Source: an uncultured Planctomycetales bacterium (GTDB taxonomy: Bacteria > Omnitrophota > Gorgyraeia > Zapsychrales > CAYRXT01). From it: a stretch of 64,000 nt of DNA. The stretch lies in the NCBI GenBank assembly GCA_964428315.1, contig CAYRXT010000012.1, positions 562 through 64,561 of the forward strand, read 5' to 3'. The notes under the pieces were generated by a model, which did no database searches, was not told the origin of the DNA, and saw nothing but the letters and a program-made list of their open reading frames with translations. The translations under genes were made by a program, and so were the position numbers. This document shows positions 600 to 41,777 of this stretch, one piece after another; within the stretch, counting starts at the first letter, position 1; the number at the start of each line of letters is the position of its first letter.

Positions 600-2078
600 T
601 TACGCTTTTCCCCGTCGTTCCTCGAGCTGGCGGCGGATATCGTAGGCCTTGTCTTCCGTGAGGGTGATGGTCATGACGATGAAAAGCGCGGCGATGGACG
701 TCACGATGGGGATGCAGACATCGAAGATCCTCATCCACAGGAGCGTTTCGTTGGCCTGTCCCAGTCCGATTTCCTGCCTGAACCCGGTCCCGGTCAGGAG
801 CGCGCCCCCGATGAAGGAGGCGAGCGCCAGCCCCAGCTTGACCATCCACCAGTAGACCGCGCTGAACACCCCTTCGCGTCGCTCTCCGGTTTGAAGCTCG
901 TCGAGGTCGCAGACGTCGGCGACCATGGACAGACAGAGCGTAAAAAGAGATCCGAGTCCGAAGACAATGAAAGGCGCGCACATCAGCAGCAGGTAGGGCG
1001 TTTCCTGGTTGTAGCCGATCCATTTCATGGCGTAGCCGACGACCGAAATGGGTATCGTGATAAAAAAGGTGTTCCTCTTGCCGAGCTTTCCGGATATCCA
1101 CGGGATCAGGGCTATGACACCCACGGTGCAGACCGCGCTGAAGGTCCCGTACCATCCCAGGAGCTGGCCGCCCTGGGAATACGCCGAATCGAGGGTGGGG
1201 GCATGCTGGAAGACGTAGAAGAATATGACATACGCGATAAAGGTGGAGCTGAGCATGAAGCCGTTAAAGATGAGGAACGTGATCGCGCAGAGCTTGACGA
1301 ATTCCTTGTTCTTGAAGGTTATGCCGATGCCCCTGAACATATTGGCGATGACGTCCAGGAAGCTTTTCCCTTTCACGGGTTTGGGAAATTTGTCGAAGTG
1401 CTCCTTGTTATAGATGCCGGGGAGGATTCCCCCCAGGAGGACAACGGCCCCGATAATGACGGCCAGCACGCGCCCTCCCAGCACGATATCCGGCCCCCCG
1501 GTCTCGGGGTCGGGGAACCAGTTTTTGTTGTGCATGATCGCCCAGCACCAGGGCGCGACCAGCCAGGGGATCTGGGCGAATATCTTGCTGACGCTCTGCA
1601 GGCGGGTCCGTTCATGGTAGTCGGGGGTGAGCTCATACCCCAGCGCGATCCAGGGGATGGAATAACACGTGAACGCGGCGAAAAAGAGGATCTGGAAGAT
1701 CAGGAAATACCAGAAATAATACACCTCGCTGTGCCCCCGGTACAGCTGAAACATCAACGCGTAGCAGATGCCCGCCGCGATCGCGCCGAAGAATATGAAC
1801 GGCCTGCGGCGACCGTATCTCGTGCGCGCGTTATCCGAACTGTAACCGATTATGGGATCCAGGACAGCGTCGAAGATGCGCGGGATGCATCCGATAACCC
1901 CGACGAGAAATGGATTCACCCCCAGGCCGAGGTTCAGGACGATGATCATCTGTCCGATAAAAGCGGCCTGGCTGTCGTTGGCCAGGGAACCCATCCCGTA
2001 TATGAACTTCTGAAAGAGGGGGATGCGGTCCTCCGGTGCGGTAACGTGGCGGGTTGACGGGGTTTGAGACTGAGCCAT
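600..2078 (-). CDS. MFS transporter of the GPH (glycoside-pentoside-hexuronide) cation symporter family, MelB/YihO-like
   Basis: 492 aa with 12 predicted TM helices. The N-terminal segment (PLFQKFIYGMGSLANDSQAAFIGQM..DPIIGYSSDNARTRYGRRRPFIFFGAI) is typical of GPH symporters. Antisense ORFs 531-2057 and 589-1155 are judged spurious. Confidence 0.85.
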   Translation of the reverse strand: MAQSQTPSTRHVTAPEDRIPLFQKFIYGMGSLANDSQAAFIGQMIIVLNLGLGVNPFLVGVIGCIPRIFDAVLDPIIGYSSDNARTRYGRRRPFIFFGAIAAGICYALMFQLYRGHSEVYYFWYFLIFQILFFAAFTCYSIPWIALGYELTPDYHERTRLQSVSKIFAQIPWLVAPWCWAIMHNKNWFPDPETGGPDIVLGGRVLAVIIGAVVLLGGILPGIYNKEHFDKFPKPVKGKSFLDVIANMFRGIGITFKNKEFVKLCAITFLIFNGFMLSSTFIAYVIFFYVFQHAPTLDSAYSQGGQLLGWYGTFSAVCTVGVIALIPWISGKLGKRNTFFITIPISVVGYAMKWIGYNQETPYLLLMCAPFIVFGLGSLFTLCLSMVADVCDLDELQTGERREGVFSAVYWWMVKLGLALASFIGGALLTGTGFRQEIGLGQANETLLWMRIFDVCIPIVTSIAALFIVMTITLTEDKAYDIRRQLEERRGKA

Positions 2079-2334
2079 TGAGACCTCCGTTTAAATGAGT
2101 TCAAGAAACATAAAATTAAAGCGGCGCAATAAGTTGCAGCGGAATCGGGACCCGGTGCGCTGTCCCGATCAGAATGAGGATGGCAGGTGCCGGCAACGCC
2201 CGATTTTTTCCAGCAGCGCCGCATTATAACAAAAAAATAAGTCATAAACAATATTATTTCGAAAACAACTCACGTATAATTATAGAATAATTCGGAGAAA
2301 CCTTATTAATTATGCAACTTTCTGCCCCCCGCAA

Positions 2335-2943
2335 ATGTCTAATATAAATGAAGACGCCATCAAAGACGATATGCGCCGCGTGAACAGGGACATCCCCGAA
2401 GACATCATCCGCCGGGCGCAGGCCGGCGATGTTCGCGCCTTCGAGGAGGTTTACCGCCGTTACGGCAGGGACGTTTACGCGATCAGCCTGAGGATCCTGG
2501 CGAACACCTCCGACGCGCAGGACGTGACACAAGACGTGTTCGTGACGCTTTTTCGCAAATTGAAGGATTTCCGGTTCAAGGCGGCGCTTAGGACATGGAT
2601 CTACCGCGTCGCAATCAATGCCGCGCTTAATTGCCGGAAAAAGCGGGCGAGGACCGCCGGCCGCCAGGTCAACCTGGAAGATTACCCCGCGGCGGGCGCG
2701 GGCGCGCCCGAGGCGCAAAACCAGGCGGACAATGAGGCTCGCATGCGCCTTGCCGCCGCGCTCATGGACAGGCTTAACCCCGGACAAAAGGCCTGCCTTG
2801 TCCTGCGCAGTATTGAAGGGATGAGTTACCGGGAAATCGCCCAGACGCTCAATATCGGCATCAACACGGTGCGCTCCCGGATCCGGCGGGCGCGCCTGAC
2901 CCTGCTGGCCTTAAGACATGAGGAGACGGAAGGTGAACTGTAG
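2335..2943 (+). CDS. ECF (extracytoplasmic function) sigma-70 family RNA polymerase sigma factor
   Basis: 202 aa. Region 2 (FEEVYRRYGRDVYAISLRIL..AQDVTQDVFV) and region 4 HTH (EGMSYREIAQTLNIGINTVRSRIRRAR) are both present. The cognate anti-sigma gene overlaps its end. Confidence 0.9.
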   Translation: MSNINEDAIKDDMRRVNRDIPEDIIRRAQAGDVRAFEEVYRRYGRDVYAISLRILANTSDAQDVTQDVFVTLFRKLKDFRFKAALRTWIYRVAINAALNCRKKRARTAGRQVNLEDYPAAGAGAPEAQNQADNEARMRLAAALMDRLNPGQKACLVLRSIEGMSYREIAQTLNIGINTVRSRIRRARLTLLALRHEETEGEL

Positions 2944-3424
2944 AAAGGCACGGAATATAATATTGACAGATTATATCGACGGCGCGCTCTCCAAAAAAGA
3001 CGATGATGCCCTTGAGTCGCATCTGTCCGCGTGCGAAAAATGCCGTGTCCTGGCCGCGGAAGCCCGGCGGACGCTCCGAGATCCGTTTCCGGAAGCGTAT
3101 AACCCCGTACCGCCGGAGGCCATCTGGCGGAACATCGAAAGACAGATCATCGCGGAGCCGCGTGCCGCCTTCCGGCGCCAAGGTATACCGGTATGGGACC
3201 GGCTGGCCGGTCTTCGTCTGCCGTCCGTGTACCGTTGGGCACTGGCATCCGCCCTGGCGTTTTTGGTTGCCTTGACCGTTTTTCACCGGCCGGCACCGCG
3301 GCAGACGGCAGACGTAGAAGAGATGGACAAGGAGATTTCATACATCGCCTATATGCTGGATGAGGCCGCGCCGGAAGAATCCACCGAGGGTTACGGGACG
3401 GTCATTGAAGAATATTTCCTTTAG
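2918..3424 (+). CDS. Membrane-anchored anti-sigma factor with N-terminal zinc-binding ZAS motif
   Basis: Overlaps the sigma factor stop. The HLSACEKC (H-x3-C-x2-C) zinc-binding anti-sigma signature is followed by a single TM helix (WALASALAFLVALTVF) and a periplasmic tail. Start could be the GTG at ~2930 instead of the ATG at 2918. Confidence 0.7.
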   Translation: MRRRKVNCRKARNIILTDYIDGALSKKDDDALESHLSACEKCRVLAAEARRTLRDPFPEAYNPVPPEAIWRNIERQIIAEPRAAFRRQGIPVWDRLAGLRLPSVYRWALASALAFLVALTVFHRPAPRQTADVEEMDKEISYIAYMLDEAAPEESTEGYGTVIEEYFL

Positions 3425-3485
3425 GGGCGGACGCGGCCCTGGGAGAAACGGCCTGAATCAAGTGACGAAACAAAAGGAGGCCCTC

Positions 3486-3962
3486 ATGAAAAGAAAAATC
3501 GTGATTCTGTGTGTTCTGTCTGGATTCGCGGGACTGACCCTATTGACGGCCCCGGCCGGCGCCGGTGAATGGATGACCCGGGACCGGAAGGCCCGGTGGG
3601 AAAAGAAGAGGAGCGCCCTCTACGCCGAAATCGGTCTTAGCCCGGAACAGGAGTCCGCGCTTAAGGAGAACCGCAGGACCTATCTAGCCGAGATGAAGAA
3701 GATCTACGCCGGGATAAAGGACAAAAGAGAAGCCGTGCGACGTGAATTGCGTAAACCCGAACTGGACCTGCAGCGCGTCAGGCAGCTGCACGGTGAGTTC
3801 AAGGAGCTCAAGGCGCAGAAGGATGACCGCCGCCTGGAAGGGATCCTGGAGGTCCGCGGCATCCTGACGGCCGAACAGTTTTCCCGTTTTCTGGACATGA
3901 AGGACAGGGCCAAAGAGGGGAGACAACAGAAACGATACGACCGAAAAGGAGGCGTACAATGA
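3486..3962 (+). CDS. Periplasmic LTXXQ-motif protein (Spy/CpxP/CnrX Metal_resist family)
   Basis: Strong RBS AAGGAGG 5 nt before ATG 3486. The ORF-track start at 3360 is an N-terminal over-extension. Has a signal peptide (MKRKIVILCVLSGFAGLTLLTAPAGA). Helical, K/E-rich body with LSPEQESALKE and LTAEQFSRFLD (LTXXQ-like) motifs. Confidence 0.65.
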   Translation: MKRKIVILCVLSGFAGLTLLTAPAGAGEWMTRDRKARWEKKRSALYAEIGLSPEQESALKENRRTYLAEMKKIYAGIKDKREAVRRELRKPELDLQRVRQLHGEFKELKAQKDDRRLEGILEVRGILTAEQFSRFLDMKDRAKEGRQQKRYDRKGGVQ

Positions 3963-4450
3963 GGAGATTCTCGCTTATTCTTTTTTTGTCGGCCGCGATA
4001 TGCGCGCTGACGGTGAACACGGCCTCGGCCAGGGATTGGGGAAGACAAGGCAAAGCACACGGCCTATCACTCGAGCACAAGGTCTACAAGAAAGTCATGA
4101 TGATCAAGCATAGACAGGACGAACTGAAATTTTCCGATGAGGACGTCCAGAAGGCGTATGACCTGAAGACCGCGCTTAAGAAGGACCTCATCAAACTCGA
4201 GACCGATCTGGACATTGTGGCGCTGGACATCGACAAGGCCATGAGGGCCAAGACCCCTGACGCGCAGGCCATCAGCAAATTGATCGACGAAAAGTATGAG
4301 ATCAAGAAAAAGAAGGCCAAGCGCGCCCTGGAGGCCTACATTGCCGTGAAGGCCATGTTCAGCGAAGAGCAGAGGGCGAAGCTCAGGAGCCTCTACAAGC
4401 AAAAGAAGTTCGGGAATAAAGCCCCGGGCCGGCGTTCATCAGGAAAATGA
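3959..4450 (+). CDS. Second periplasmic LTXXQ-like protein, a paralogue of the upstream gene
   Basis: ATGA start/stop overlap with the upstream gene, and an RBS AAAAGGAGG. Signal peptide, helical K/E-rich body, and motifs FSDEDVQKA and FSEEQRAKL. Confidence 0.55.
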   Translation: MRRFSLILFLSAAICALTVNTASARDWGRQGKAHGLSLEHKVYKKVMMIKHRQDELKFSDEDVQKAYDLKTALKKDLIKLETDLDIVALDIDKAMRAKTPDAQAISKLIDEKYEIKKKKAKRALEAYIAVKAMFSEEQRAKLRSLYKQKKFGNKAPGRRSSGK

Positions 4451-4459
4451 CAGTATTAA

Positions 4460-4519
4460 GGGGCAGACGTTTTTATGCTGATAATTTCACGCAAAATACA
4501 TGTAAAAGACGTCTGCCCC
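4460..4519 (+). terminator. Stem-loop between the chaperone-like genes and the RND gene: 11-bp perfect stem (GGGGCAGACGT/ACGTCTGCCCC) with a 38-nt AT-rich loop. Candidate attenuator or partial terminator.
   Basis: Perfect inverted repeat read directly in the sequence. No U-tract follows, so a regulatory or processing role is as likely as termination. Confidence 0.4.
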
Positions 4520-4536
4520 TGATATTATAAAGAATT

Positions 4537-7500
4537 ATGCTCACGAAGATCATCGCCTATTTTGTCGACAGGCACCTGTTGACCAACCTCATCTTCATCG
4601 CCGTCATCGTCGGGGGGATCGTCAGCTGGCGGCACATTAAAAAAGAAGAGATGCCCGACGTCACCTTCGACCGGGTGCGCATCTCCGCCGCCTATCCCGG
4701 GGCCACGGCCGAAGAGGTCGAGCACTTTGTGACGAAGGAGATCGAAGAGTCCGTCGAGGGCCTCGACGGGGTTTACCGGGTGACCAGCAGCGCGAGCCAG
4801 GGGGCGACCTCCGTTACCGTCGAGCTGGAACAGGGGTACCCCAGGAGAGACGAGGCCATCACCGAGATCCGCAACGCCGTTCTGGACGTGGCCCTGCCCG
4901 AAGACGTCCGTGATGACCCCTCGGTGCGGGTCTTCGAGACCTCCAAAAAGGCCATCCTTGATGTGGTCCTGCTGTACAAAGACGCCCACCTGATGTCCAC
5001 CGAGCAACGCCAGGTCCTTCAGACTTACGCGGCCGCCCTGGAAAACCATCTCCTGAACCTGCCGCAGGTCAACAGCGTCAACCGCTCCGGTTATTTTCAG
5101 GAAGAGATCCAGATCAAGGTGGATCCCCAGAAGCTGATCCGCTACGACATCCCCCTAAGCCAGGTCAGAAACGAGGTCACCGCCAACCATGCCCGCCAGC
5201 CCGCCGGGCACATCGAGGTCAAAGACGAACCGAAGGTCACCATCAGCGCACAGCTGGATACGCCGGAGAAGCTTGAAGGGCTCTTCATCCAGGCCGGTTT
5301 CGAGGGCAAGGCGGTCCCCTTGAAGGAGATCGCCGAGGTGCGTTACGGTTTCAACAAGGAGAAAGAGATCATCAAGGTCAACGGCCACGAGGCGGTGATC
5401 TTTAACGTGGTCAAGAACACCTCCTACGGGATCCTTGAGTCGCTCGAGGCGGTCAAGAAAGTCACGCGGCGTTTCCGGGAGACCCATCTGAAGGACGCTC
5501 CCGTCGATCTCGCGCTTCTGGACGATGAATCCATCGACGTGCGTAACCGCCTTAACATTATTTCTCAGAACGGTCTTATCGGTTTTTTTCTGATCCTGGC
5601 CCTGCTGTTCCTGTTTCTGAACAGACGTTCGGGTTTTTGGGTGGCGATGGGGATCCCGTTCACTGTCTGTTTTACGCTGATCATGGCCGTGATCCTTGGA
5701 TACACCATCAACAACACGACGCTGGCGGCGGTGATCATCGTTATGGGGATGGTCGTGGACGACGCCATTGTGGTCGCCGAAAACATCGCGCGTCTGCGCG
5801 CCGGGGGCATGCCGTCGCGCGAGGCCGCGATCGAGGGCACGGCCAAGGTCTTCCTGCCGGTTGTGGCCAGCATCGTCACGACCTGCGTCGCGTTTATCCC
5901 GCTGTTTTATTTTTCCGGACGTTTCGGGCAGATCAACAGCTTTATCCCGCCCATCATCTTCATGATGCTCGGCGCGAGCCTTTTCGAATCTCTGATCATC
6001 CTTCCCGGGCACCTTCATTTTGAGGGCTTTAGTTTCAAAAAACGGAATACCCCGGCCGGCATGGCCAACCCCGCGGTCAAACACTGGTTTGATGCCGTCG
6101 AGGACAGGTACGGACGGATTTTACAAAAAGTTCTGCCTTTGAAACATTTTGTGTTTTTGGGTTTTATTTTTCTGCTGGCCCTGTCTTTCTGGATCATGAC
6201 TGCGAGGATGAAGTTCGTCATGTTCCCCCATGAGGAGACAAGGGACATCGTGATCTCCGGCAAGGCCGGACCTCAGGCCGACCGGTTTGAAACCGCGGCT
6301 ATGACTCAACAGATTGAAGAGATGCTCAGGCCGTATTTGGGCAAAGAGGTCGTGGGCTACCGCACACAAATCGCGCGCAGCCGCCGGGGCGGGGCCGTCG
6401 AGGAGAACAAGTTCCGCATGCTCGTCGAGATCGTGCCCAGGGAAAAACGGCAAAAGAGCGCGGACCAGCTGGTCAGGCGGTGGGAGCCGCAGGCGCAGGC
6501 GATCGAAGGCATGACGGAGCTTGTCGTGCAGAAAAGCCGGTGGGGCCATTCCAGCGGCAGTCCGATCGAGGTCCTGATCCAGGAGAACAATGACGCCCTG
6601 CGCGCGAGGGCCGCCGATAGTCTTTCCGAGGCGATGAAGAGGCATCCCGCCCTGGAGAACGTGGAGATCGAGGCCCCGATCCGGATCCCGGAATACAAGA
6701 TCGATTTCAGGCGCGAGAAGATCAAGCGGCTTTCCATCAGCCCGTCGACCCTGACATCGACCTTCCGCAGCGCGCTGGAAGGCTCGATCCTTTACGAATT
6801 CCCCAGGGGCGATGAGGAGGTGGACGTGCGGCTTTCGGCGAAAGATGAATCCAAGACGGACATCGGGACCATCCTTCAGATCCCGGTCGAGAATAACCGC
6901 GGATACCTTGTGCCGCTGGGGGATCTCGTCAATGTTCAGGAAACCACGACGCCCAACTCGATTTCACGGCGGGACGGCAAACGGACGACCACCGTTTACG
7001 CCGACATCAGACCGAAGGCGGGGATGACGCCGCTTGAAGTGGCCGAAGACCTGGAGCAAACAGCCTTTGTCGAAATGGCCAACGAACAGCCGACCTCGAC
7101 GCTGTCCTTCGCCGGCGAGATTTACGATACGCGGGAGTCCCAGGGAGATTTCAGCAACGCGGTTATCCTTGTCCTCCTTTTGATCTTCGCGATCCTGGCG
7201 GTCCTGTACAATTCCCTGACCCGGCCGCTGATCATCATGCTGGCGATCCCCTTCGGCGTGGTAGGCGTGATACTGGCCTTTTTACTTCACGGAAAGATCC
7301 TTTACGGGTTCTTCGCCGCGGTCGGCGCCCTTGGTCTGGCGGGGGTGGTCATCAACGATTCGATCATCATGCTCGCCAAACTCGACGAAGAGGTGTATGC
7401 CAAAAACAGGGAGGAGGCCCGCGGGCAGATCCCGGACGTCGCCAAGACGCGTCTTCGCGCCGTGGTCCTGACCACAGTGACCACTGTCGCCGGCGTTTTT

Positions 7501-7665
7501 CCGACGGCGTACGGCCTGGCGGGCTATGACGCCATGCTGGCGGAGATGATGCTGGCCCTGGGATGGGGACTCATATTCGGAACGCTCATCACCCTGGTCC
7601 TGGTCCCGTGCATGTACAGCGCGATCCTGGACATGCGTTTTAAAATGGAGAAGGCATTGACATGA
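4537..7665 (+). CDS. RND efflux transporter permease subunit, HAE1 (AcrB/AcrD/AcrF) type
   Basis: 1042 aa with 12 TM helices and two large periplasmic loops. The TM4 motif MGMVVDDAIVVAENI matches the AcrB-type DDAIVV proton-relay motif, not the HME DFG-D-E motif. The N-terminus is AcrB-like. Confidence 0.9.
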   Translation: MLTKIIAYFVDRHLLTNLIFIAVIVGGIVSWRHIKKEEMPDVTFDRVRISAAYPGATAEEVEHFVTKEIEESVEGLDGVYRVTSSASQGATSVTVELEQGYPRRDEAITEIRNAVLDVALPEDVRDDPSVRVFETSKKAILDVVLLYKDAHLMSTEQRQVLQTYAAALENHLLNLPQVNSVNRSGYFQEEIQIKVDPQKLIRYDIPLSQVRNEVTANHARQPAGHIEVKDEPKVTISAQLDTPEKLEGLFIQAGFEGKAVPLKEIAEVRYGFNKEKEIIKVNGHEAVIFNVVKNTSYGILESLEAVKKVTRRFRETHLKDAPVDLALLDDESIDVRNRLNIISQNGLIGFFLILALLFLFLNRRSGFWVAMGIPFTVCFTLIMAVILGYTINNTTLAAVIIVMGMVVDDAIVVAENIARLRAGGMPSREAAIEGTAKVFLPVVASIVTTCVAFIPLFYFSGRFGQINSFIPPIIFMMLGASLFESLIILPGHLHFEGFSFKKRNTPAGMANPAVKHWFDAVEDRYGRILQKVLPLKHFVFLGFIFLLALSFWIMTARMKFVMFPHEETRDIVISGKAGPQADRFETAAMTQQIEEMLRPYLGKEVVGYRTQIARSRRGGAVEENKFRMLVEIVPREKRQKSADQLVRRWEPQAQAIEGMTELVVQKSRWGHSSGSPIEVLIQENNDALRARAADSLSEAMKRHPALENVEIEAPIRIPEYKIDFRREKIKRLSISPSTLTSTFRSALEGSILYEFPRGDEEVDVRLSAKDESKTDIGTILQIPVENNRGYLVPLGDLVNVQETTTPNSISRRDGKRTTTVYADIRPKAGMTPLEVAEDLEQTAFVEMANEQPTSTLSFAGEIYDTRESQGDFSNAVILVLLLIFAILAVLYNSLTRPLIIMLAIPFGVVGVILAFLLHGKILYGFFAAVGALGLAGVVINDSIIMLAKLDEEVYAKNREEARGQIPDVAKTRLRAVVLTTVTTVAGVFPTAYGLAGYDAMLAEMMLALGWGLIFGTLITLVLVPCMYSAILDMRFKMEKALT

Positions 7666-9116
7666 AAAGGCTCCGATTGAGAATCCGACCGCTTGTTCTT
7701 TTGCTGACACTGGGACTGCTGGCGGGAGGCGGCGGTCAGGCCGCCGACGGCCCGCTTCCGGGACAGGAAGGCACGCCTGCGGTTAAACCTGAACCCGCAG
7801 AAGATCAGGACAACGTCCTGGGGCTTGACGAATTTATTGTGCTGGCCACGGGCAGGGACACGGAGTTTGAGGAGATCCTGATCGACGAGCTGACCCTGCA
7901 GTACCAAAAGGCCCTGCTCCTCCCGGCCGGGGATATCGTGCTTTCGGTCAAACACCAGCATGAATTTTTTCTCAGCCAGGACCGTGATTCGCCCGACACG
8001 ACAGTCTCGTTAAGCAAACTCTTTCCCTTTACGGGCACGGAGATCGGCGTGGACTATGAGGCCGGGGCCGGTGTCTCATCGGCGTCGATTTCATCGAGCG
8101 CCGGCTTTTCCATCAGCCAGCCGGTCGCCCGGAACGCCTTCGGCCGCTCCACGCGCCTGCTCGACAAGATCATCGGGCTGGAGGTGGAGGTCGCGCGCCA
8201 CCAGGTCATCGAGGCCTATGAGGATTACATGGCCGTGATCCTGACGGCCTACTATAACTGGTATGAAGACTACGAGAGCCTCAAGGTCGGCAGGTCCGCC
8301 TACCGGTCGAATGTTCAGCTTTTGGACAACATGTTCGAGCGACAGAGGCAGAAGATCGCCCTGCCCGTCGACGTCAACAAAGTCAGACTGCAGGTCCTTG
8401 CCAAGCAAGAGCGGCTCATCGAACTTGAGGAACAATATCAGAACAGCCTCAATGTCATCGAACGCATCATCCGCTACGAGGGAGATCCTCCTCTGGCGCC
8501 CGCCGTCCCCCGGGCGATGGGTTCACGGGAAGAGGGCTTCGGACCGGCGTTCGAGGCCTTCCGCGAAGAGAGCCGCACGTTCGACATCCTGGGCCGGCTG
8601 GAGGAGCGGTCTTCTCTCCAGGTCGAACGGGACGCCGACGCGCTCCTGCCCTCCATCAATCTGCTGGCCGGTTACGAACTCAGCGGGGAGGAATACGGCG
8701 TCACCGGTGAAGAAGACTTTGTTTACGCCGGGGTGGAGGTGGACTGGCCGCTTCCCGACCGGGTCGACCGCGCCCGGTTCGAGACTTCAAAGATACTAGA
8801 GCGCCGCACGCGGCTTTCCACGGTCAATACGTACCACCGTCTTTACACGCAGCTGCGCAACCTCTACCTCCAGATGGAGCGCGAGGAAAAGCTTATCCGG
8901 ATCGCCGATGAACGCATCGCGCTGGCGGAATCGGTGCTCGAAGACGAGGCGGAAAATTATTCCTTCGGCAAGATCACGTTGAACGACTACATCCAGGCCG
9001 TCAACGCGCTGGATACCAACCGGTTCAACAAGATCACCCACGAATCCCTCCACAAAAAGCTCCTCGTCGAATGGCTGAGGCTCACCGACCGGCTGGTCCG
9101 TGACGCGGATAGATAG
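7662..9116 (+). CDS. Outer membrane efflux protein (TolC/OprM-like OMF)
   Basis: ATGA-coupled to the RND gene. Has a signal peptide and repeated coiled-coil OEP-like halves (LSKLFPFTGTEIGVDYEAG...; LLAGYELSGEE..VYAGVEVDWPL). 484 aa. Confidence 0.8.
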   Translation: MKRLRLRIRPLVLLLTLGLLAGGGGQAADGPLPGQEGTPAVKPEPAEDQDNVLGLDEFIVLATGRDTEFEEILIDELTLQYQKALLLPAGDIVLSVKHQHEFFLSQDRDSPDTTVSLSKLFPFTGTEIGVDYEAGAGVSSASISSSAGFSISQPVARNAFGRSTRLLDKIIGLEVEVARHQVIEAYEDYMAVILTAYYNWYEDYESLKVGRSAYRSNVQLLDNMFERQRQKIALPVDVNKVRLQVLAKQERLIELEEQYQNSLNVIERIIRYEGDPPLAPAVPRAMGSREEGFGPAFEAFREESRTFDILGRLEERSSLQVERDADALLPSINLLAGYELSGEEYGVTGEEDFVYAGVEVDWPLPDRVDRARFETSKILERRTRLSTVNTYHRLYTQLRNLYLQMEREEKLIRIADERIALAESVLEDEAENYSFGKITLNDYIQAVNALDTNRFNKITHESLHKKLLVEWLRLTDRLVRDADR

Positions 9117-9130
9117 AAACAGGGCCAGCC

Positions 9131-9610
9131 CTATTTATTAAACCGCCGCCGGATCTCCCGCGCCCGGCGGCGGTTTTTGTTCCAGTCCCAAAACCCTATC
9201 CCGGCCGAGGCGGAGGAGGAATAATGGATGGTCTTGGTCTCCTCGTCAAACAGGAATTCCACGTCGTCGGACCACCCCAGCGAATCGGAAACCTCGAACT
9301 CCGCGTGGATATAGTCCGGCTCCCGCACGATGATCTTGGCGTTGCCCATGTCCCGCAGGACGTCAATGACCCGTCCGTAAGCCTCCTCTTTTGAGCCCGT
9401 ATAGTTCAAGGGCTCGATGTGGTGTATGCCTTCCTTATAATAGGACGAAACGCATTTAGGCGCCGGAGGGCACGGGCGCAGTTTGCCGTCTTTCAATCCC
9501 GTCTCTTTCGGAAGGAACGCGGAGCATCCCCCCAGGAGGATGGCCACAAGCCATAGGAGGACCGCGGCTTTTCGTGTTTTGTCGATGCGGTCATTCATAA
9601 CGAAAGACAT
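9131..9610 (-). CDS. Small lipoprotein, DUF1499-like
   Basis: Lipobox LLGGC after an N-terminal hydrophobic segment. The RPCPPAPKCVSS motif is reminiscent of the DUF1499 family. 159 aa. Confidence 0.55.
   Translation of the reverse strand: MSFVMNDRIDKTRKAAVLLWLVAILLGGCSAFLPKETGLKDGKLRPCPPAPKCVSSYYKEGIHHIEPLNYTGSKEEAYGRVIDVLRDMGNAKIIVREPDYIHAEFEVSDSLGWSDDVEFLFDEETKTIHYSSSASAGIGFWDWNKNRRRAREIRRRFNK
9142..9181. terminator. GC-rich hairpin (ACCGCCGCCGG...CCGGCGGCGGT) followed by TTTTGTT. Candidate bidirectional terminator.
   Basis: Inverted repeat plus T-run immediately after the OMF stop. It overlaps the last codons of the convergent minus-strand gene. Confidence 0.4.
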
Positions 9611-9861
9611 TATAGGACATCAAAGCCCCTAAAGGCCAGACTTTCTTGTCCGGCGAGCCGGCGGCCCGGCGGGCGGGGTTTTCCCTTCGGGCATGGACTG
9701 CGTCATACAGGATCCATACCGGGTTTAAGCGGGTTGACGGCCGGACGGTGCGGTTTAAACTTGGTTGAAAGGCGGCGGTTCGTCCGCGCGTCGCGGTCGG
9801 GACGTGCCAATACAAAATCCTTGTCAACCGGCAGGAAGCCGCTTACAATGGAGATGCTTTT

Positions 9862-13733: not shown

Positions 13734-14429
13734 ATGAAATATTCCGTCATCATCCCGACGTACAACGCCCAGCGTCACCTTGAAGGATGTATCCGGTCCG
13801 TGTGTGCGGCCCTGCCGGAGAGCGAGATCATTGTGTCCGACGGCGGCAGTCTGGATAAGACGCGGGACATAGGCGTTAGGGAGAAAGCGAGGGTGATCGA
13901 TTCCCCCAAAGGAAGAGGAGTACAGCTGAACCGGGGCGCGGCCCGCGCGGCCGGAAAGATATTCCTCTTTTTGCACTGCGATTCCCGGCTGGATCCGGAG
14001 GCCGGCCGGGTTCTGGAGACATGGTTTGCCCGCGGAGACGTTCAGTCCGGAAAGTTTACCTTGAAATTCGACCGGGATTCGCGTCTGTTGGGGCTTTACG
14101 CGGCCCTGGCAAGGTTTGATTCTTTCCTGACGAGTTTTGGGGACCAGGGCATTGTGGTGAGAAAAGAATTATTTTGGAGGTTGGACGGATTTCCGGAATG
14201 GCCTCTTTTGGAAGACGTGAGATTTCTTCAAAAGGCCAGGAGGATAACCAAGATCCATACCCTTCCGGCGGTCGTGACGACATCGGCGGAACGCTTCCTT
14301 CAAAACGGCGTTATCAGACAGCAATGGCTTAATGCAGGTATTCTGATGAAGTACCGGCTCGGGCATTCGCCGGCGCGCCTCGCTTCGCAATACGAAAAAG
14401 GAGGGACGAGGGATGAAGGCATTCTTTAG
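13734..14429 (+). CDS. Family 2 glycosyltransferase (TIGR04283-like small GT2)
   Basis: MKYSVIIPTYNAQRHLEGCIRSV...SDGGSLDKT is a GT-A N-terminal nucleotide-binding region. Starts 3 nt after the previous stop. 231 aa. Confidence 0.75.
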   Translation: MKYSVIIPTYNAQRHLEGCIRSVCAALPESEIIVSDGGSLDKTRDIGVREKARVIDSPKGRGVQLNRGAARAAGKIFLFLHCDSRLDPEAGRVLETWFARGDVQSGKFTLKFDRDSRLLGLYAALARFDSFLTSFGDQGIVVRKELFWRLDGFPEWPLLEDVRFLQKARRITKIHTLPAVVTTSAERFLQNGVIRQQWLNAGILMKYRLGHSPARLASQYEKGGTRDEGIL

Positions 14430-15201
14430 AGCGGCAATCATAGGAACAGGTCTTTTTATTTTCGGAGGGTTGAACGCCATGAGTTACGCCCAGGAAATGA
14501 ACCATGAGCTCTTCAGCGGGGTGCTCGGTGATCACGTGGAAAAGGGTCTGGTCGATTACCCGGGCTTATGCGGCGACAAGCGCCTGGAGGCCTACCTGGG
14601 GCAACTGGAAGGCACCGATCCAAGCGCTCTTTCGCGAGATGAAGCCATGGCCTTCTGGATCAACGCCTACAACGCCTTCACCCTGGAACTGATCTGCGGG
14701 AATTATCCTCTGAAGAGTATCAACGAACTGCATACGGGGGGACTGATTCTCGGCTCCATCTTGAAGAAGACCGCGTGGGACAGGGGTTTTATCGAGATCA
14801 ACGGGCGGGACTACAGCCTGGGGCAGATAGAGCACAAGATATTGCGGCCGCGGTTTGACGATCCAAGGATCCACTTCGCCATTGTGTGCGCTGCGCGCAG
14901 TTGTCCGCCTCTGCGTTCCGAGGCTTATGAGGCCGGGGCGCTTGACCGGCAGCTGGATGACCAGGGCAGGCTATTCCTGGCTGAACGAAGCGATCTGAAC
15001 GATTACGATCTGGACAAGAAGATCGCGTATCTCTCGCCGATATTTTCCTGGTTTAAGAAAGACTTCGGGGAAGACAGGACGGACCGGCTTCTCTTTCTGG
15101 CGGACTACATGCCACCGGAGGCGGCGCGGTCCGTCAGGGCGGCCCCGGAGGAGTGGACGATACGATACAAGACTTATGATTGGAGCCTGAATGAACAGTA
15201 G
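14413..15201 (+). CDS. DUF547 domain protein
   Basis: Classic DUF547 block (EAMAFWINAYNAFTLELI...HFAIVCAARSCPPLR). Has a signal peptide. Overlaps the GT2 end. Confidence 0.8.
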   Translation: MKAFFRAAIIGTGLFIFGGLNAMSYAQEMNHELFSGVLGDHVEKGLVDYPGLCGDKRLEAYLGQLEGTDPSALSRDEAMAFWINAYNAFTLELICGNYPLKSINELHTGGLILGSILKKTAWDRGFIEINGRDYSLGQIEHKILRPRFDDPRIHFAIVCAARSCPPLRSEAYEAGALDRQLDDQGRLFLAERSDLNDYDLDKKIAYLSPIFSWFKKDFGEDRTDRLLFLADYMPPEAARSVRAAPEEWTIRYKTYDWSLNEQ

Positions 15202-15985
15202 ATGCGTTATTACGGTCTTTGTCTTTCTGATCGCGGCTCTTCCCTTGTCCGGCCCGGCCGCGGAGTCCTTCAGCGGCGAAACCCGGGAGAGGGTGGTGAC
15301 GGTAGACGAGGAGACCGGCGAGGCCCGTTCGGTTTCCCAGGTCCGAATCAAGGGCGTTCCGGATGCGCCGGATTCTTACATCCTCCGCGTCCGGGGCCGG
15401 GGCCGGCACAAGACGCTGGAAGAGGCCCGGTGGATGAGCGAAGCATTGTTAACCAAAGAGGACGGCCGCGTGCGTGTTCAAAACAGCGTCAAGACGGTTT
15501 ATTCCGGCGGGGAGATCGTTTTCCGGGCGAGTAAACGTTACGACTATGAGAACAAGACAGTATCCCTGGAGATAGAGGACAAGGGGAAGGGCCCGACGCT
15601 TACAAAGGAATTTCCCATCCGGGGGGCTATCTGCGACGACGTGACGCTTGTCCACGTCCTGGACGCGGTTGTCCCCGCGTCGCCGGAAGGCGGTCCCGGC
15701 CGGTTTTATCTGTTGACCAATGAACCCAGGCTTTACCATGTCATGGTCAAAAACAGGGGCAAAGACACCCTGAACCTGCCCCAGGGCAAAAAGGAGGCGG
15801 ACAAGATCCAGCTTATGGCCGACCTGGGGCCTTTGACGGAGATGGCCGCGAAATGGGTGCCGGCGACGTATGTCTGGATGGACCGGGGCCATTCCGAACG
15901 CTGGCTGCAGTATCAGGGGATGGAGGCCGGATACGGCTCGGCCTATATCAAGGCTTTTGTTACTGAAAGGGAGAAACAGCCATGA
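15191..15985 (+). CDS. Secreted hypothetical protein
   Basis: Signal peptide (VFVFLIAALPLSGPAAE). Translationally coupled to flanking genes. No motif recognised. Confidence 0.5.
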   Translation: MNSRCVITVFVFLIAALPLSGPAAESFSGETRERVVTVDEETGEARSVSQVRIKGVPDAPDSYILRVRGRGRHKTLEEARWMSEALLTKEDGRVRVQNSVKTVYSGGEIVFRASKRYDYENKTVSLEIEDKGKGPTLTKEFPIRGAICDDVTLVHVLDAVVPASPEGGPGRFYLLTNEPRLYHVMVKNRGKDTLNLPQGKKEADKIQLMADLGPLTEMAAKWVPATYVWMDRGHSERWLQYQGMEAGYGSAYIKAFVTEREKQP

Positions 15986-16905
15986 GAAAGATCCTTGTCA
16001 TGGGAGCCACCGGTTTTGTGGGCTCAAGACTCGTGGCCCGATTGATGGAAAAAGGCTTTTCGGTCAGGGCCGCCGGACGCTCCCGGCATAAACTCGAAAA
16101 ACGTTTGGGGAGCGGACGAAACAACCTGGAGTTGGTTGAGGCCGATGTACTTGACGCCGTCTCCCTCGGGAAGGCGTTGCAGGGAGTGGATACCGCTTTT
16201 TATCTTGTTCACTCCATGAATCCCCAGAACCCGGACTTCGCCGGGGCGGACAGGAAAGCGGCCGGGAACATGGCCCGTTTGAGCGGGGAGTGCGGAGTCA
16301 AAAAGATCATTTATCTGAGCGGACTGGGGGAAGAAGGAGAAGGTCTCAGCAAACACCTCCGGTCCCGGCATGAAGTCGAAGAGATCCTGCGCTCGGGCAC
16401 AGTCCCGGTGACCGTTCTGCGGGCGGCGATGATCATTGGCGCGGGCAGCGCCTCTTTCGAGATCATGAGGCATCTGGTCAACCGTCTTCCGGTCATGATC
16501 ACCCCCCGCTGGGTCAGTACGCCTTCCCAGCCCATTGCCGTCGATAACGTTATCCATTATCTATGCGGGTGCATCGACCGGGAGCAGACCTGGGGACAGA
16601 CTTATGATATCGGAGGAGATGATATCGTCTCTTACCGCGATCTCATGCGTGTTTATGCCGAGGAGGCCGGTCTTCGGAAAAGGTTCGTAATCCCCGTCCC
16701 GGTCCTGACGCCCTGGCTGAGCGCCTTATGGATCCATCTGGTCACGCCGATGCCCTCTTATATCGCAAGGCCGCTGGCCGAGGGGCTAAGGAATCCCGTT
16801 ATCTGTCAGGACCGGCGCATCACAGAGGTTATCCGCCAGGACCTCCTGGACTGCCGGGAGGCGATCCGCAGGGCGTTAAACGATATTCATAATAAGGAAA
16901 GGTGA
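15982..16905 (+). CDS. NAD(P)H-binding NmrA/SDR-family oxidoreductase (atypical SDR with C-terminal DUF2867-like region)
   Basis: MRKILVMGATGFVGSRLVARL is a Rossmann GxxGxxG motif. About 300 aa. RBS AAAGGGAGA. Confidence 0.8.
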   Translation: MRKILVMGATGFVGSRLVARLMEKGFSVRAAGRSRHKLEKRLGSGRNNLELVEADVLDAVSLGKALQGVDTAFYLVHSMNPQNPDFAGADRKAAGNMARLSGECGVKKIIYLSGLGEEGEGLSKHLRSRHEVEEILRSGTVPVTVLRAAMIIGAGSASFEIMRHLVNRLPVMITPRWVSTPSQPIAVDNVIHYLCGCIDREQTWGQTYDIGGDDIVSYRDLMRVYAEEAGLRKRFVIPVPVLTPWLSALWIHLVTPMPSYIARPLAEGLRNPVICQDRRITEVIRQDLLDCREAIRRALNDIHNKER

Positions 16906-16911
16906 GCTTCC

Positions 16912-17961
16912 ATGAGAAGATTTATGAGTGCCGGTCAGTTTTTACTGGAGAAGGGATGCGTGCCCGACGGACTGGTCCGGATCGGCATCCGCGGACTCTT
17001 GAAGGACAAACTCAAAGAGGAAAGACGGCTCGAGAAGACGGCGGGGGCGAGGCGTAAGAGCGACCTGGTCGGTTTTTTGCGTTCATCCCCTATCGCCGTG
17101 AACACTCAGGACGCCAATGCCCAGCATTATGAGCTTCCCACGGAGTTTTTCCGTCTGGTTATGGGAAGACACATGAAATACAGCTGCGGTATCTGGAATG
17201 AAGGGACCGCTGATCTGGACACCGCGGAACGCGATATGCTGGAACTCACCGTCCGCAGGGCGGAGGTGGCGGACGGACAGAGGATACTTGAACTGGGATG
17301 CGGATGGGGTTCCTTGACCCTTTATTTGGCGGAAAAGTTTCCCGCCAGCCGTATCACCGGTGTCTCCAACTCTTCAACGCAGAAAGAATACATCCTGAGG
17401 GAGGCCCGTTCCAGGGGGCTGGACAATGTCCGCATCATCACGGCGGACATGAATGATTTCACGATCGATGAACAATTCGACCGGGTCGTCTCGGTCGAGA
17501 TGTTTGAGCATATGCGCAATTACGGCCGGCTTTTCGAAAAGATCGCCGGTTTCCTGGATGACGGCGGCAAGCTGTTTGTCCACATCTTTGCCCACCGGAA
17601 ATTCGCCTACCTGTATGAGGAACGCGACCCCCATGACTGGATAGGCCGGTATTTTTTCACCGGCGGTCTCATGCCCAGCGAAGACCTGTTCACGTTCTTT
17701 CAGGAGTATTTCTCCATCGAGAGGCAGTGGCGTGTCCCGGGGCATCATTATCAGAAGACAGCGGAGGCCTGGCTGAAGAACACGGACAGGAACAAGGCCA
17801 GGATCCTGCCTATTTTGCGGGAGACGTACGGCCCTGATCAGTTCAAGACGTGGTGGATATACTGGCGCGTGTTTTTCATGTCCTGCGCCGAGCTCTGGGG
17901 CTACCAAAAAGGGACCGAATGGGTTGTCTGTCATTACCTGTTCACAAAAAGGGGGGCATAA
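16912..17961 (+). CDS. SAM-dependent methyltransferase of the cyclopropane-fatty-acyl-phospholipid synthase (CMAS) family, copy 1
   Basis: SAM-binding motif I (ILELGCGWGSLTLYLA) and motif (RVVSVEMFEHM) are typical of the CFA/mycolic-acid cyclopropane synthase family. 349 aa, shorter than canonical Cfa. Confidence 0.85.
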   Translation: MRRFMSAGQFLLEKGCVPDGLVRIGIRGLLKDKLKEERRLEKTAGARRKSDLVGFLRSSPIAVNTQDANAQHYELPTEFFRLVMGRHMKYSCGIWNEGTADLDTAERDMLELTVRRAEVADGQRILELGCGWGSLTLYLAEKFPASRITGVSNSSTQKEYILREARSRGLDNVRIITADMNDFTIDEQFDRVVSVEMFEHMRNYGRLFEKIAGFLDDGGKLFVHIFAHRKFAYLYEERDPHDWIGRYFFTGGLMPSEDLFTFFQEYFSIERQWRVPGHHYQKTAEAWLKNTDRNKARILPILRETYGPDQFKTWWIYWRVFFMSCAELWGYQKGTEWVVCHYLFTKRGA

Positions 17962-19245
17962 ATGGAAAGAATAGCCGTCATCGGCACCGGGATCGCGGGG
18001 ATGGGCGCCGCCTATTTTTTAAGGGACCGCTATGACGTCACGTTTTACGAGAAGAACGATTATCCCGGCGGGCATACCAACACGGTATCGGTGAATGAGG
18101 GCGGACGTGAGGTCCGCATGGACACGGGTTTCATGGTCTATAACGAGGTGACCTACCCCAACCTTACGAGGCTTCTGGGGGAACTGGACGTCAGGACGAA
18201 GCCGACCACGATGTCCTTCAGCGTCCAGCATATCCCCACGGGTCTGGAATACCGCGGGACGGGTCTGAACAATCTTTTTTGTCAGCGTAAAAATATGTTC
18301 AAGGCGTCTTTCATCAGGATGCTCTGGGAAGTGCACCGTTTCAGGATGGAAGCGGACGAGGTCCTAACCGGGGAGCGGTATCACGACTATACGCTGGCAC
18401 GGTATGTCCGGGAGAAGGGTTACAGTGAGGACTTCCTGACGAAGTTCCTGGTCCCGATGAGCTCGGCGGTCTGGTCCACACCTCCCGGGATGATGCTGGA
18501 GTTTCCCGCCATGGCACTGGTCATGTTTTTCAAAAATCACGGTTTTCTGGGTTTGAAGACCCAGCACCAGTGGTTTACCGTCGATGGGGGGAGCCGGCAT
18601 TACCGCGATAAAATCATGGACCTTTTCCCCGGGAAGGTGAGGCTCAACACCCCGGCAAAAAAAGTCGCCTTACGCGACGGGAGAGTCTTTGTGGAAGACG
18701 GCAAAGGGGAAAGCGGGGCTTACGACAAGGTCATCATCGCCTCGCACGCGGACGAGGCCCTGGCCCTGCTCGAGAAGCCGACCTCCGCCCAGAAAGACCT
18801 GCTGGGGCGATTTGCGTACCAGGCCAATCCCACGGTCTTGCATACCGATACGGCCCTCATGCCGCGCATTAAACGCGCCTGGTCGTCGTGGAATTACCGT
18901 ATAGGTCCCGACAGGACGGGACAAATGCAAACCACGACCATCTACGACATGAACAGCCTTCAGAAGGTGTCGGAGCGGGAGAATTATTTTGTCTCGATCA
19001 ACGACCCCGGCTGGATCGATCCCGGAAAGATACTCTGGAAGACCGAGTATACCCATCCCGTCTATACTGTCGGGGCGCTTGAGGCGCAGAAGGGACTCGG
19101 CCGGCTGAACGACGCGGGGCCCGTCTATTTTTGCGGGAGTTACTTCCGTTACGGTTTCCACGAAGACGCCCTGACCTCGGCTGTCGAGGCCGTCCGGGCG
19201 CTCACGGGACGTTATCCGGATGGCTACGGGGGGTTTGCGCCATGA
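17962..19245 (+). CDS. NAD(P)/FAD-dependent oxidoreductase (amine-oxidase/phytoene-desaturase-like), homologous to the UfaD-type fatty-acyl desaturase of the DUF1365-Cfa locus
   Basis: N-terminal dinucleotide-binding motif (IAVIGTGIAGMGAAYFL). 427 aa. Sits immediately before DUF1365 with ATGA coupling. Confidence 0.85.
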   Translation: MERIAVIGTGIAGMGAAYFLRDRYDVTFYEKNDYPGGHTNTVSVNEGGREVRMDTGFMVYNEVTYPNLTRLLGELDVRTKPTTMSFSVQHIPTGLEYRGTGLNNLFCQRKNMFKASFIRMLWEVHRFRMEADEVLTGERYHDYTLARYVREKGYSEDFLTKFLVPMSSAVWSTPPGMMLEFPAMALVMFFKNHGFLGLKTQHQWFTVDGGSRHYRDKIMDLFPGKVRLNTPAKKVALRDGRVFVEDGKGESGAYDKVIIASHADEALALLEKPTSAQKDLLGRFAYQANPTVLHTDTALMPRIKRAWSSWNYRIGPDRTGQMQTTTIYDMNSLQKVSERENYFVSINDPGWIDPGKILWKTEYTHPVYTVGALEAQKGLGRLNDAGPVYFCGSYFRYGFHEDALTSAVEAVRALTGRYPDGYGGFAP

Positions 19246-22356: not shown

Positions 22357-22399
22357 TCAGGGGTAAGGGGTAAGGGATTCGTGGCAGGAGATAAGAAAA

Positions 22400-22454
22400 G
22401 GGGGGACAGGCTGCTTTGAAGATAAGACAGAAGCAGCCTGTCCCCCCTTTTTTG
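22400..22454 (+). terminator. Rho-independent terminator
   Basis: GGGGGGACAGGCTGCTT..AAGCAGCCTGTCCCCCC is a 16-17 bp stem, followed by TTTTTTG. Confidence 0.75.
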
Positions 22455-22473
22455 ATTATCCATACCTCAGGGC

Positions 22474-41709: not shown

Positions 41710-41728
41710 GGGGATTAAAGTAATAAAC

Positions 41729-41777
41729 GGCCCCCTTCCCCTCCGCTTAAAGCGGAGGGGTAGGGGGCCGTTTTTTT
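41729..41777. terminator. Bidirectional rho-independent terminator
   Basis: GGCCCCCTTCCCCTCCGC-TTAA-GCGGAGGGGTAGGGGGCC followed by TTTTTTT. It sits between convergent genes. Confidence 0.75.

Follow-up and report, generated by a model that had tools for sequence, protein, structure and literature searches.

A multi-phylum RND and TolC-like cassette family lacking an adjacent adaptor gene, and its probable regulatory link to a sigma module of ECF281 layout in Omnitrophota

How is an efflux pump to be understood whose operon encodes an inner-membrane permease and an outer-membrane channel but no periplasmic adaptor, and what connects it to the sigma-factor genes in front of it? Both questions are raised by positions 2314 to 9116 of a stretch of 64,000 nucleotides (the window; contig CAYRXT010000012.1, GenBank assembly GCA_964428315.1, an uncultured bacterium of the Omnitrophota). 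Here six genes on the + strand encode, in this order, an extracytoplasmic function (ECF) sigma factor, a zinc-finger anti-sigma factor, two exported helical proteins (LTX1 and LTX2, together the LTXXQ proteins), a resistance-nodulation-division (RND) permease and a TolC-like outer-membrane factor (OMF). Based on comparisons with related loci, we conclude that permease and channel form a cassette belonging to a discrete family, found by sequence in at least six phyla, and that the missing gene for an adaptor, or membrane-fusion protein (MFP), appears to be a trait of this whole RND-OMF family and not an oddity of the window locus. Regulation probably ties the sigma module to the pump: a promoter of the sigma-E type stands at the sigma gene, and its motif also precedes the cassette in eight further genomes. 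What deserves attention is the cassette family rather than the LTXXQ proteins.

The family was sampled by a scan of 185,579 species genomes combined with contig look-ups, giving 40 distinct loci including the window, while 50 ordinary RND loci (at most 28% identity) from the same scan served as controls. The scan returned two RND groups separated by a clean gap, one at 43-71% identity and the other, the ordinary pumps, at 28% or less; identities are accordingly at least 43% inside the clade and at most 28% to other RNDs. Going by the titles of their records, cassettes are hosted by Omnitrophota, Gammaproteobacteria (Thioalkalispiraceae, Acidiferrobacteraceae), Elusimicrobiota, Ratteibacteria, Verrucomicrobiota, Spirochaetales and a 'Deltaproteobacteria' metagenome-assembled genome (MAG), and relatives of the RND at 60-77% identity number in the hundreds, mostly in Candidatus Omnitrophota MAGs and also in Gammaproteobacteria. 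An OMF homologue lies directly downstream of the RND gene on the same strand in 35 of the 37 loci with downstream sequence, the exceptions being L013 and L027. An MFP-like open reading frame (ORF) within about 10 kb is, by comparison, present in 2 of the 40 family loci versus 49 of the 50 controls, and in 38 of these 50 control loci the MFP gene ends at most 40 bp from the RND start. The two MFP-bearing family loci are L032, where MacA stands beside MacB, and L033, where the gene is 8.7 kb away on the other strand.

All-against-all clustering of the neighbours of the family loci, as a search for a hidden third partner, returned only generic two-component and ABC clusters and an LTX2 cluster of three loci, and the ORFs upstream in L006, L007, L019, L022, L027 and L086 were TrkH, kinase-like, MatE, FAD oxidase, OEP or unmatched. 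From locus to locus, the identity of the RND to its counterpart in the window rises and falls with that of the OMF (r = 0.91, n = 28), which fits co-inheritance of the pair, a pattern that shared phylogeny alone would also give. The searchable literature yielded no description of adaptor-less or bipartite RND-OMF pumps, of RND-OMF fusions, of the cassette's ECF-type promoter or of efflux in Omnitrophota.

Within the window, the locus comprises the following features, with bit scores from Pfam.

2314-2342, + strand: promoter of the sigma-E/ECF type, with the -35 element GCAACTT at 2314-2320, a 16-nt spacer and the -10 element GTCTAA at 2337-2342
2335-2943 (ORF), likely gene 2371-2943, + strand: ECF sigma factor (Sigma70_r2 55 bits, r4_2 58.7 bits)
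2918-3424 (ORF), likely gene 2933-3424, + strand: zinc-binding anti-sigma factor (ZAS; zf-HC2 32 bits, H-x3-C-x2-C motif)
3486-3962, + strand: LTX1, exported protein of the CpxP/Spy/ZraP family (PF13801/LTXXQ; Metal_resist 47.1 bits, LTXXQ 31.9 bits)
3959-4450, + strand: LTX2, second exported helical protein (Metal_resist 22.2 bits against a cut-off of 29.2, LTXXQ 14.3 bits)
4452-4526, + strand: hairpin with arms 4459-4474 and 4505-4520 (-32.4 kcal/mol, z = -6.5)
4537-7665, + strand: RND permease (ACR_tran, PF00873, 540.5 bits over residues 5-1029)
7662-9116, + strand: OEP/TolC-like OMF (PF02321, 85.8 bits in two stretches)
600-2078 and 9131-9610, opposite strand: flanking genes for an MFS_2 transporter and a DUF1499 protein

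The six genes are co-directional and closely packed between opposite-strand genes, and ATGA overlaps, read from the sequence, join LTX1 to LTX2 and RND to OMF. A first-pass annotation had described these genes in the same order and with the same functions, together with the ATGA couplings, the hairpin and the motif VVDDAIVVAEN in transmembrane helix 4 (TM4) of the pump; all of this is borne out by Pfam, NCBIfam and the sequence, and we agree with its remark that the arrangement is not standard. It had also reported that no MFP gene is present anywhere in the 64 kb, which holds in every search made of the window. A Pfam scan of its 58 ORFs of at least 220 aa, run together with five spiked control MFPs, matched HlyD_3 to five members and HlyD_D23 to three, which we take to be the spikes, the first of them being confirmed as an HlyD_3 match. 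A hidden Markov model (HMM) built from 38 MFPs and its iterated version gave no match in the window gene set or its six-frame ORFs, and ten exported or uncharacterised window ORFs scanned singly included no MFP. An MFP gene just outside the window, which would have removed the puzzle, cannot belong to the operon, because both flanking genes are on the opposite strand.

The same annotation had taken the regulatory and the transport half for a single fused module, a view that the related loci contradict. In the closest relatives of the RND (72-77% identity) the cassette has unrelated neighbours, sigma and LTXXQ genes not among them, and in Candidatus Scalindua two contigs (L087 and L088) hold triplets of sigma, zf-HC2 anti-sigma and Metal_resist genes with no pump nearby, so that the two halves are not one fused unit. 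The locus consists of two modules side by side, each conserved independently, with module A at 2314-4450 and module B at 4537-9116.

The permease of module B is a distant relative of the characterised pumps. Among solved structures CmeB, MexB and AcrB come closest (E about 1e-66), with a collinear alignment to CmeB, and it scores below the cut-offs of all NCBIfam subfamily models and far from each, reaching 322.8 bits against 940.35 for the hydrophobe/amphiphile efflux (HAE1) model TIGR00915, 473 against 1250 for RND_permease_2 and 253.8 against 701.45 for the heavy-metal efflux (HME) model TIGR00914 of CusA and CzcA. The TM4 motif is invariant in the family, its Asp pair corresponding to D408/D409, whereas the essential Lys940 in TM10 of AcrB and CmeB aligns to an invariant N940, followed by D941. 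The label 'HAE1-type' given in the first pass is thus apt for TM4 and fails for TM10 and for the TIGR00915 score. An Asn940-Asp941 pair in TM10 together with a retained Asp-Asp in TM4 suggests a different proton-relay network.

The OMF has a signal peptide for signal peptidase I (SPase-I) and no lipobox Cys. Its AlphaFold2 (AF2) model, at a predicted local distance difference test score (pLDDT) of 73, follows TolC in its pattern, the long helices measuring 70 and 69 aa, and the top 38 Foldseek matches in the PDB are all OMFs (TolC, OprM, CusC, CmeC and others; probability 1.00, TM-scores 0.33-0.41). A HMMER pass over 1.84 billion cluster representatives gave as few as 593 matches at E <= 1e-3, 187 of them at E <= 1e-30, and the OMF is therefore assigned to a discrete TolC-like clade. 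The first beta region of the protein (residues about 87-160) is some 30-35 residues longer than the second (about 327-365); AF2 draws it as four strands versus two, at pLDDT 45-50, compatible with an extra hairpin or a long surface loop.

In part of the family the two genes have become one. Four clusters of fusions, 1,517-1,523 aa long with the RND followed by the OMF, occur among the 120 best RND matches, and the two that were checked at the DNA level (L090 and L091) are continuous ORFs. The four in-frame fusions fall into two lineages (81% and 89% identity within the pairs, i.e. 11-19% divergence), and the nearest relatives of both lineages are unfused; at least two fusion events, each retained through divergence, are suggested. 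Among the top 150 OMF representatives, six further proteins of 1,479-1,534 aa with a C-terminal OMF part are, judging from length and match position, probably RND-OMF fusions as well, and four shorter ones (710-1,031 aa), again with the OMF part at the C-terminus, may be truncated fusions. The junction, read in four fusions, contains a basic n-region, a hydrophobic core and an AXA site, i.e. a full signal-peptide-like segment, and only about 8-15 residues separate the AXA segment from the first conserved OMF helix. We infer that signal peptidase cuts this segment, which would serve as a thirteenth TM helix, since a tether so short, if left uncut, could not let the channel reach the outer membrane, an argument that is based on the topology of TolC.

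Two observations on single members of the family may be added. In L027 (7666-13279, a Spirochaetales MAG), a 444-aa OEP protein and an all-helical 335-aa ORF with no Pfam match immediately precede the RND gene, overlapping it by 4 nt, and no OMF gene follows. Two contigs of the Omnitrophota MAG M55B152 (L006 and L007) hold two paralogous cassettes in one genome, and in L006 an LTX2-like gene follows 660 bp downstream of the OMF gene.

With what, then, does the permease couple to its channel? We propose that the RND trimer and the TolC-like trimer would form a stoichiometric pair without a dedicated HlyD-type adaptor, a self-sufficient pair being favoured because the OMF is adjacent, co-diverging and sometimes fused, the MFP almost never present, and because this holds over many phyla and contexts; weighed against an adaptor acting in trans, the chances are about even. 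The stricter claim, of direct docking between the RND trimer and the TolC-like trimer dedicated to it, no adaptor being involved at all, is made tentatively. The chief alternative is a canonical tripartite pump for which a HlyD-family adaptor, for example a MacA-like one, is encoded elsewhere and recruited in trans, and we consider this plausible without being probable. Such sharing is familiar from E. coli, where AcrD uses AcrA as adaptor. A shared adaptor has likewise been proposed for TP0790 of T. pallidum together with TP0965 (PMC8407342), and no system studied so far is held to do without an adaptor: all RND-OMF pumps of characterised structure need one, and reviews treat adaptors as indispensable for RND-TolC coupling and as drug targets (PMC8277102, PMC13328181). 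MFP genes do lie near some cassettes, namely in L032, where MacA-MacB is followed by the RND gene 14 bp after macB, and in L084 and L033, in each case as parts of other systems. The OMF itself has a canonical tip and canonical helix lengths, its tip motif YSFGKITLNDY resembling the TolC tip that contacts adaptor hairpins, and with OMF helices and an RND headpiece of normal size and an RND collinear with CmeB, direct docking would span about 60 A less periplasm than AcrAB-TolC. All loci compared, moreover, are MAGs or metagenomes. These points weigh against a pair that needs no adaptor. What speaks for it, and against recruitment in trans, is that no MFP gene occurs within about 10 kb in 38 of the 40 loci over at least six phyla, that the usual conserved core, the MFP-RND pair, is here reversed into an OMF that is nearly always adjacent and sometimes fused, and that a two-gene cassette recurring in varied contexts and phyla fits a self-sufficient transferable unit. 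A further possibility, raised in the first pass, is that the LTXXQ proteins replace the adaptor or serve the pump as chaperones or structural parts. They are encoded directly upstream of the pump genes, and among the 40 cassette loci LTX2-like genes are found near the cassette in L006 and L032 as well as the window, but no others; yet the remaining 37, closest relatives included, are devoid of LTXXQ genes, so these proteins cannot be obligatory, and by this distribution they are not pump parts. LTX1 orthologues, in addition, travel with sigma and anti-sigma genes and no pump, and the proteins have about 130 mature residues, a CpxP/Spy fold and no MFP domains, all of which makes a role within the pump scarcely credible.

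Compared with the cassette, the sigma, anti-sigma and LTXXQ part taken alone is of an ordinary, known kind. In the description of group ECF281 (Casas-Pastor et al. 2021, PMC7826278) the sigma gene is followed at +1 by the gene of a zinc-finger anti-sigma and at +2 by that of a heavy-metal resistance protein (PF13801), and 2371-3962 shows exactly this succession, ECF sigma factor included. Module A therefore corresponds to an already published layout, the class being set by gene layout from the group's description. ECF281 shares its origin, the original ECF20, with ECF291, the group of CnrH, but differs from it in anti-sigma class. A relation of both groups to metal stress has been suggested, with experimental confirmation cited only for CnrH (ECF291), and the main text of that study names no characterised ECF281 member (PMC7826278). 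To this layout the window adds a second, divergent LTXXQ protein and then the RND-OMF cassette on the same strand.

The sigma factor scores 102.5 bits with the NCBIfam sigma70-ECF model and 101.6 bits with the RpoE equivalog model, below the cut-off of 236 for the latter. Its start is most likely Met13 at 2371, because the resulting 190 aa fit orthologues of 186-189 aa; the ATG at 2335 is overlapped by the -10 element of the promoter. For the anti-sigma the most likely start is GTG 2933, from which the N-terminus aligns with orthologues. The anti-sigma crosses the membrane with a single TM helix, and its last 45 aa or so form a periplasmic C-terminal tail. Between the window and the Scalindua contigs L087 and L088 the sigmas are 42-43% and the anti-sigmas 28-31% identical, and despite this low overall identity the tail (...ISYIAYML...YGTVIEEYFL) is kept between the two genomes; over the anti-sigma orthologues its conserved pattern is ...YL..(Y/F)GT(V/S)IE(E/D)YFL. 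The tail is a candidate docking site for an LTXXQ protein.

LTX1 is a member of the CpxP/Spy/ZraP (LTXXQ) superfamily. It exceeds the Pfam cut-offs for both Metal_resist and LTXXQ, its motifs LSPEQ and LTAEQ are invariant in its family, and its AF2 model (pLDDT 76.6) has four helices, with ZraP (TM-score 0.77 on the target), Spy, CpxP and CnrX as best PDB folds and NccX also among the matches. Relatives at 33-41% identity are found in Candidatus Scalindua, where the +2 position is kept in L087 and L088. Mature LTX1 has a single His, with no Cys outside the signal peptide, and the three N-terminal His of LTX2 are not conserved among its relatives. LTX2 had been taken in the first pass for a paralogue of LTX1; the two are not recent paralogues and appear to be remote relatives, since BLASTP between them gives E = 0.97 and the link emerges only from profiles (hhalign of LTX2 against the LTX1 family, 81% probability, E = 1e-5). 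The LTX2 relative in L006 lies just above the LTXXQ cut-off (24.6 bits versus 24.3). Profiles of LTX1 and LTX2 gave no significant match to PDB sequences (ZraP, E = 0.66), and a metagenome scan with LTX2 found one distant relative in an unrelated context and no second copy of the six-gene layout. We consider the LTXXQ proteins to be, most plausibly, outputs of the regulon rather than metal sensors or pump subunits. By analogy with CpxP on CpxA and CnrX on CnrY, they may feed back on the periplasmic tail of the anti-sigma.

The link between the modules comes from promoter motifs. The hexamer GTCTAA occurs 13 times in 5.4 kb upstream of RND genes where 0.77 occurrences are expected from the same loci, an excess whose nominal P-value is optimistic, the hexamer having been chosen after looking. 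In 8 of 10 occurrences GnAAC precedes it at a fixed spacing of about 16 nt, giving the motif G(G/A)AAC(T/A)(T/A)-N16-GTCTAA. This is essentially the E. coli sigma-E consensus of GGAACTT and GTCAAA about 16 nt apart (Rhodius et al., PMC1312014), and GCAACTT-N16-GTCTAA in the window likewise qualifies as an RpoE-type promoter. A position weight matrix (PWM), built from eight sites upstream of RND genes in other genomes only, was run over both strands of the 64 kb and had its best score of 20.5 at 2314-2342, in front of the sigma gene, with 13.9 as the next; transcription is predicted to start at about 2348-2351. In L087 and L088 the orthologous sigma genes have independent matches 8-15 nt ahead of them. 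Because the motif precedes the sigma genes in all three places, the window sigma family is probably autoregulated from GnAACtt-N16-GTCTAA. On 1.8 Mb of control loci, both strands counted, the PWM gave seven matches at threshold, none of them upstream of a pump. The cassettes carrying the motif belong to Omnitrophota (L001, L004, L005, L090, L091) and Elusimicrobiota (L012, L022, L024).

In Scalindua (L087 1338-9223, L088 1985-2116), further copies of G(G/A)AACTT-N15/16-GTCTAA precede a second LTXXQ gene and a DUF6515 gene, and another precedes a divergent small ORF beside a Gly-zipper lipoprotein gene; these copies outline a small regulon for the sigma family. Three gammaproteobacterial loci, L003 (labelled Woeseiaceae), L013 and L015, have in place of the ECF-type promoter a shared sequence, TATATATAAAGA(A/G)TGGCATAAT, some 50-70 nt ahead of the RND start and similar to an extended -10 element.

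The first pass had also proposed looking for ECF-type promoters within the operon, and the outcome is divided: a site is present at the sigma gene and none precedes the RND start at 4537. The 86-nt gap (4451-4536) before the RND gene contains no match to an ECF-type or sigma-70 promoter, and a sigma-70 promoter and terminator scan of 2000-9700 gave counts at chance level. The gap is mostly occupied by the hairpin, which has a 30-nt loop and no T-tract, unlike the canonical T-tract terminators of this genome. Searched for as a dispersed repeat, its arm GGGGCAGACG is no more frequent than expected. Rfam at gathering thresholds has no match in the whole window, so that hairpin and 5' region resemble no RNA family known there, and the 34 loci compared upstream of their RND genes share no leader structure, only the promoter motif. 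Elsewhere in the window, at 22391-22456 and 41722-41776 (+), long GC-rich hairpins with T-tracts exemplify real terminators of the genome; the latter, situated between convergent genes and flanked by A-rich sequence on its 5' side, may act both ways.

A locus of the Elusimicrobia resembles the window in part. In L032 (3016-14579, an Elusimicrobia MAG) one strand encodes an ECF sigma, a zf-HC2 anti-sigma, an LTX2-like protein, a TPR protein, a CsgG-like lipoprotein, an OEP protein, MacA, MacB and the cassette.

Based on these results we propose, with the chances for and against about equal, that the locus is a composite envelope-stress operon in which the sigma promoter drives the pump by read-through. 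Envelope stress would inactivate the ZAS anti-sigma, and the freed sigma factor would then transcribe its own operon from the 2314-2342 promoter. Two periplasmic proteins of the Spy/CpxP kind would result and, where transcription reads through, the pump as well; the hairpin would modulate the expression ratio or stabilise the upstream transcript. The same logic operates in E. coli, where the Bae and Cpx regulons co-induce spy/cpxP with mdtABC/acrD. Read-through is favoured because the cassette has no such promoter of its own here, lies 86 nt behind the sigma operon and is separated from it by a hairpin without a T-tract. The full combination, a two-component direct-docking pump whose fused forms are cut by signal peptidase and which is an output of an RpoE-like sigma factor in Omnitrophota and Elusimicrobiota, can be advanced only as a possibility.

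Two other explanations of the association deserve consideration. The modules may be mere neighbours, the hairpin ending the sigma operon and the cassette being transcribed from an unrecognised promoter of its own, independently of the sigma factor. The unrelated upstream genes of the cassette's closest relatives and the occurrence of the sigma module without pumps are in keeping with this, as are the great stability of the hairpin, which could still terminate transcription, and a weak TATTAT hexamer resembling a -10 element 12 nt ahead of the ATG of the RND gene; a sigma-70 promoter, if weak, could escape detection in the gap. Also to be held against a sigma-driven pump, the motif is present in only 8 of 34 cassette loci and is common to several RpoE-like ECF groups, so that the sigma factor acting elsewhere need not be an orthologue of the window sigma. 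Yet the six genes are close-packed on one strand, the hairpin differs from real terminators, the gap is without a promoter match, cassettes elsewhere share their ECF-type promoter with the window sigma gene, and L032 offers a parallel in which sigma, ZAS and LTX2-like genes stand upstream of an efflux supercluster ending in the cassette. Simple neighbourhood is, for these reasons, somewhat unlikely in our view. The first-pass annotation had instead called the regulatory half CnrYXH-like, i.e. a heavy-metal sensor controlling a metal efflux pump. The match of LTX1 to PF13801 ('heavy-metal resistance'), the common ECF20 origin of ECF281 and ECF291 and their suggested relation to metal stress, and the presence of CnrX and NccX among the fold matches of LTX1 agree with such a role. 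The gene order, however, has a ZAS anti-sigma at +1 and not a CnrY-like one at -2. LTX1, with one His and no Cys outside its signal peptide, lacks, as judged by His count, the three His of the CnrX set His42/His46/Glu63/His119. The RND has Asp-Asp in TM4 and scores 253.8 bits with the CusA/CzcA model versus 473 with multidrug-type models, and no CzcB/CusB-type adaptor accompanies it. A metal-sensing circuit is very improbable here, and our preferred reading remains the composite envelope-stress operon.

If direct docking is true, the requirement of RND/OMF pumps for an MFP would have its first natural exception in the cassette. The family may reveal adaptor-free docking, reviving the old model of direct AcrB-TolC contact, or it may show long evolutionary reliance on a promiscuous adaptor in trans. 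The shared sigma-E-type promoter provides a first regulon prediction for a layout of the ECF281 type, and ties envelope-stress signalling to efflux in the poorly known phyla Omnitrophota and Elusimicrobiota.

Two gene neighbourhoods apart from the pump may be recorded. At 13734-21264 the window has a probable membrane-lipid modification locus, with a GT2 glycosyltransferase (assigned by us to 13734-14429), DUF547 and DUF3108 proteins; two CMAS (cyclopropane-fatty-acid-synthase-like) and two epimerase-family matches, obtained for the window as a whole, probably belong here too. Near an Omnitrophota cassette, L001/L002 2064-6164 (-) encodes a 1,366-aa protein with four AAA domains and Peptidase_M41, which has the look of a tandem FtsH-like protease.

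Among known systems, AcrAB-TolC, MexAB-OprM and CmeABC are the closest in transport. They share with the cassette a 12-TM ACR_tran permease, collinear with CmeB/AcrB and with Asp-Asp in TM4, a TolC-fold OMF with two OEP repeats and helices of about 70 residues, and operon-coupled genes. They differ in that here neither the operon nor the 64 kb nor 38 of the 40 family loci contain a HlyD-family adaptor gene, the invariant and sometimes fused neighbour of the RND is the OMF and not the MFP, Lys940 of TM10 gives way to Asn-Asp, and RND and OMF form discrete clades far from the characterised members. CnrYXH/NccYXH of Cupriavidus (ECF291) with cnrCBA resembles the regulatory half, having an ECF sigma, an anti-sigma that crosses the membrane once and carries a short periplasmic tail, and a periplasmic protein of the PF13801 fold, and adjoining an RND efflux operon; gene order is different, the anti-sigma is a ZAS in place of CnrY, and here there is no His-rich metal site, the pump is non-HME and no CnrB adaptor is encoded.

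In regulation, the BaeSR and CpxAR systems of E. coli offer the nearest parallel, one envelope signal inducing a Spy/CpxP-family protein and RND pumps, with CpxP feeding back on the sensor; there a two-component system is at work, whereas the window has an ECF sigma/anti-sigma pair and contiguous genes. E. coli sigma-E uses GGAACTT and GTCAAA about 16 nt apart, compared to GCAACTT-N16-GTCTAA here, and its gene is autoregulated (PMC1312014), but the window sigma is below the RpoE equivalog cut-off and its anti-sigma is a ZAS, not RseA. Finally, AcrD and TP0790 of T. pallidum (PMC8407342) are likewise RND genes without an adjacent MFP gene; these are single cases without an adjacent OMF, whereas the cassette described here keeps its OMF adjacent nearly throughout a family that extends over several phyla.

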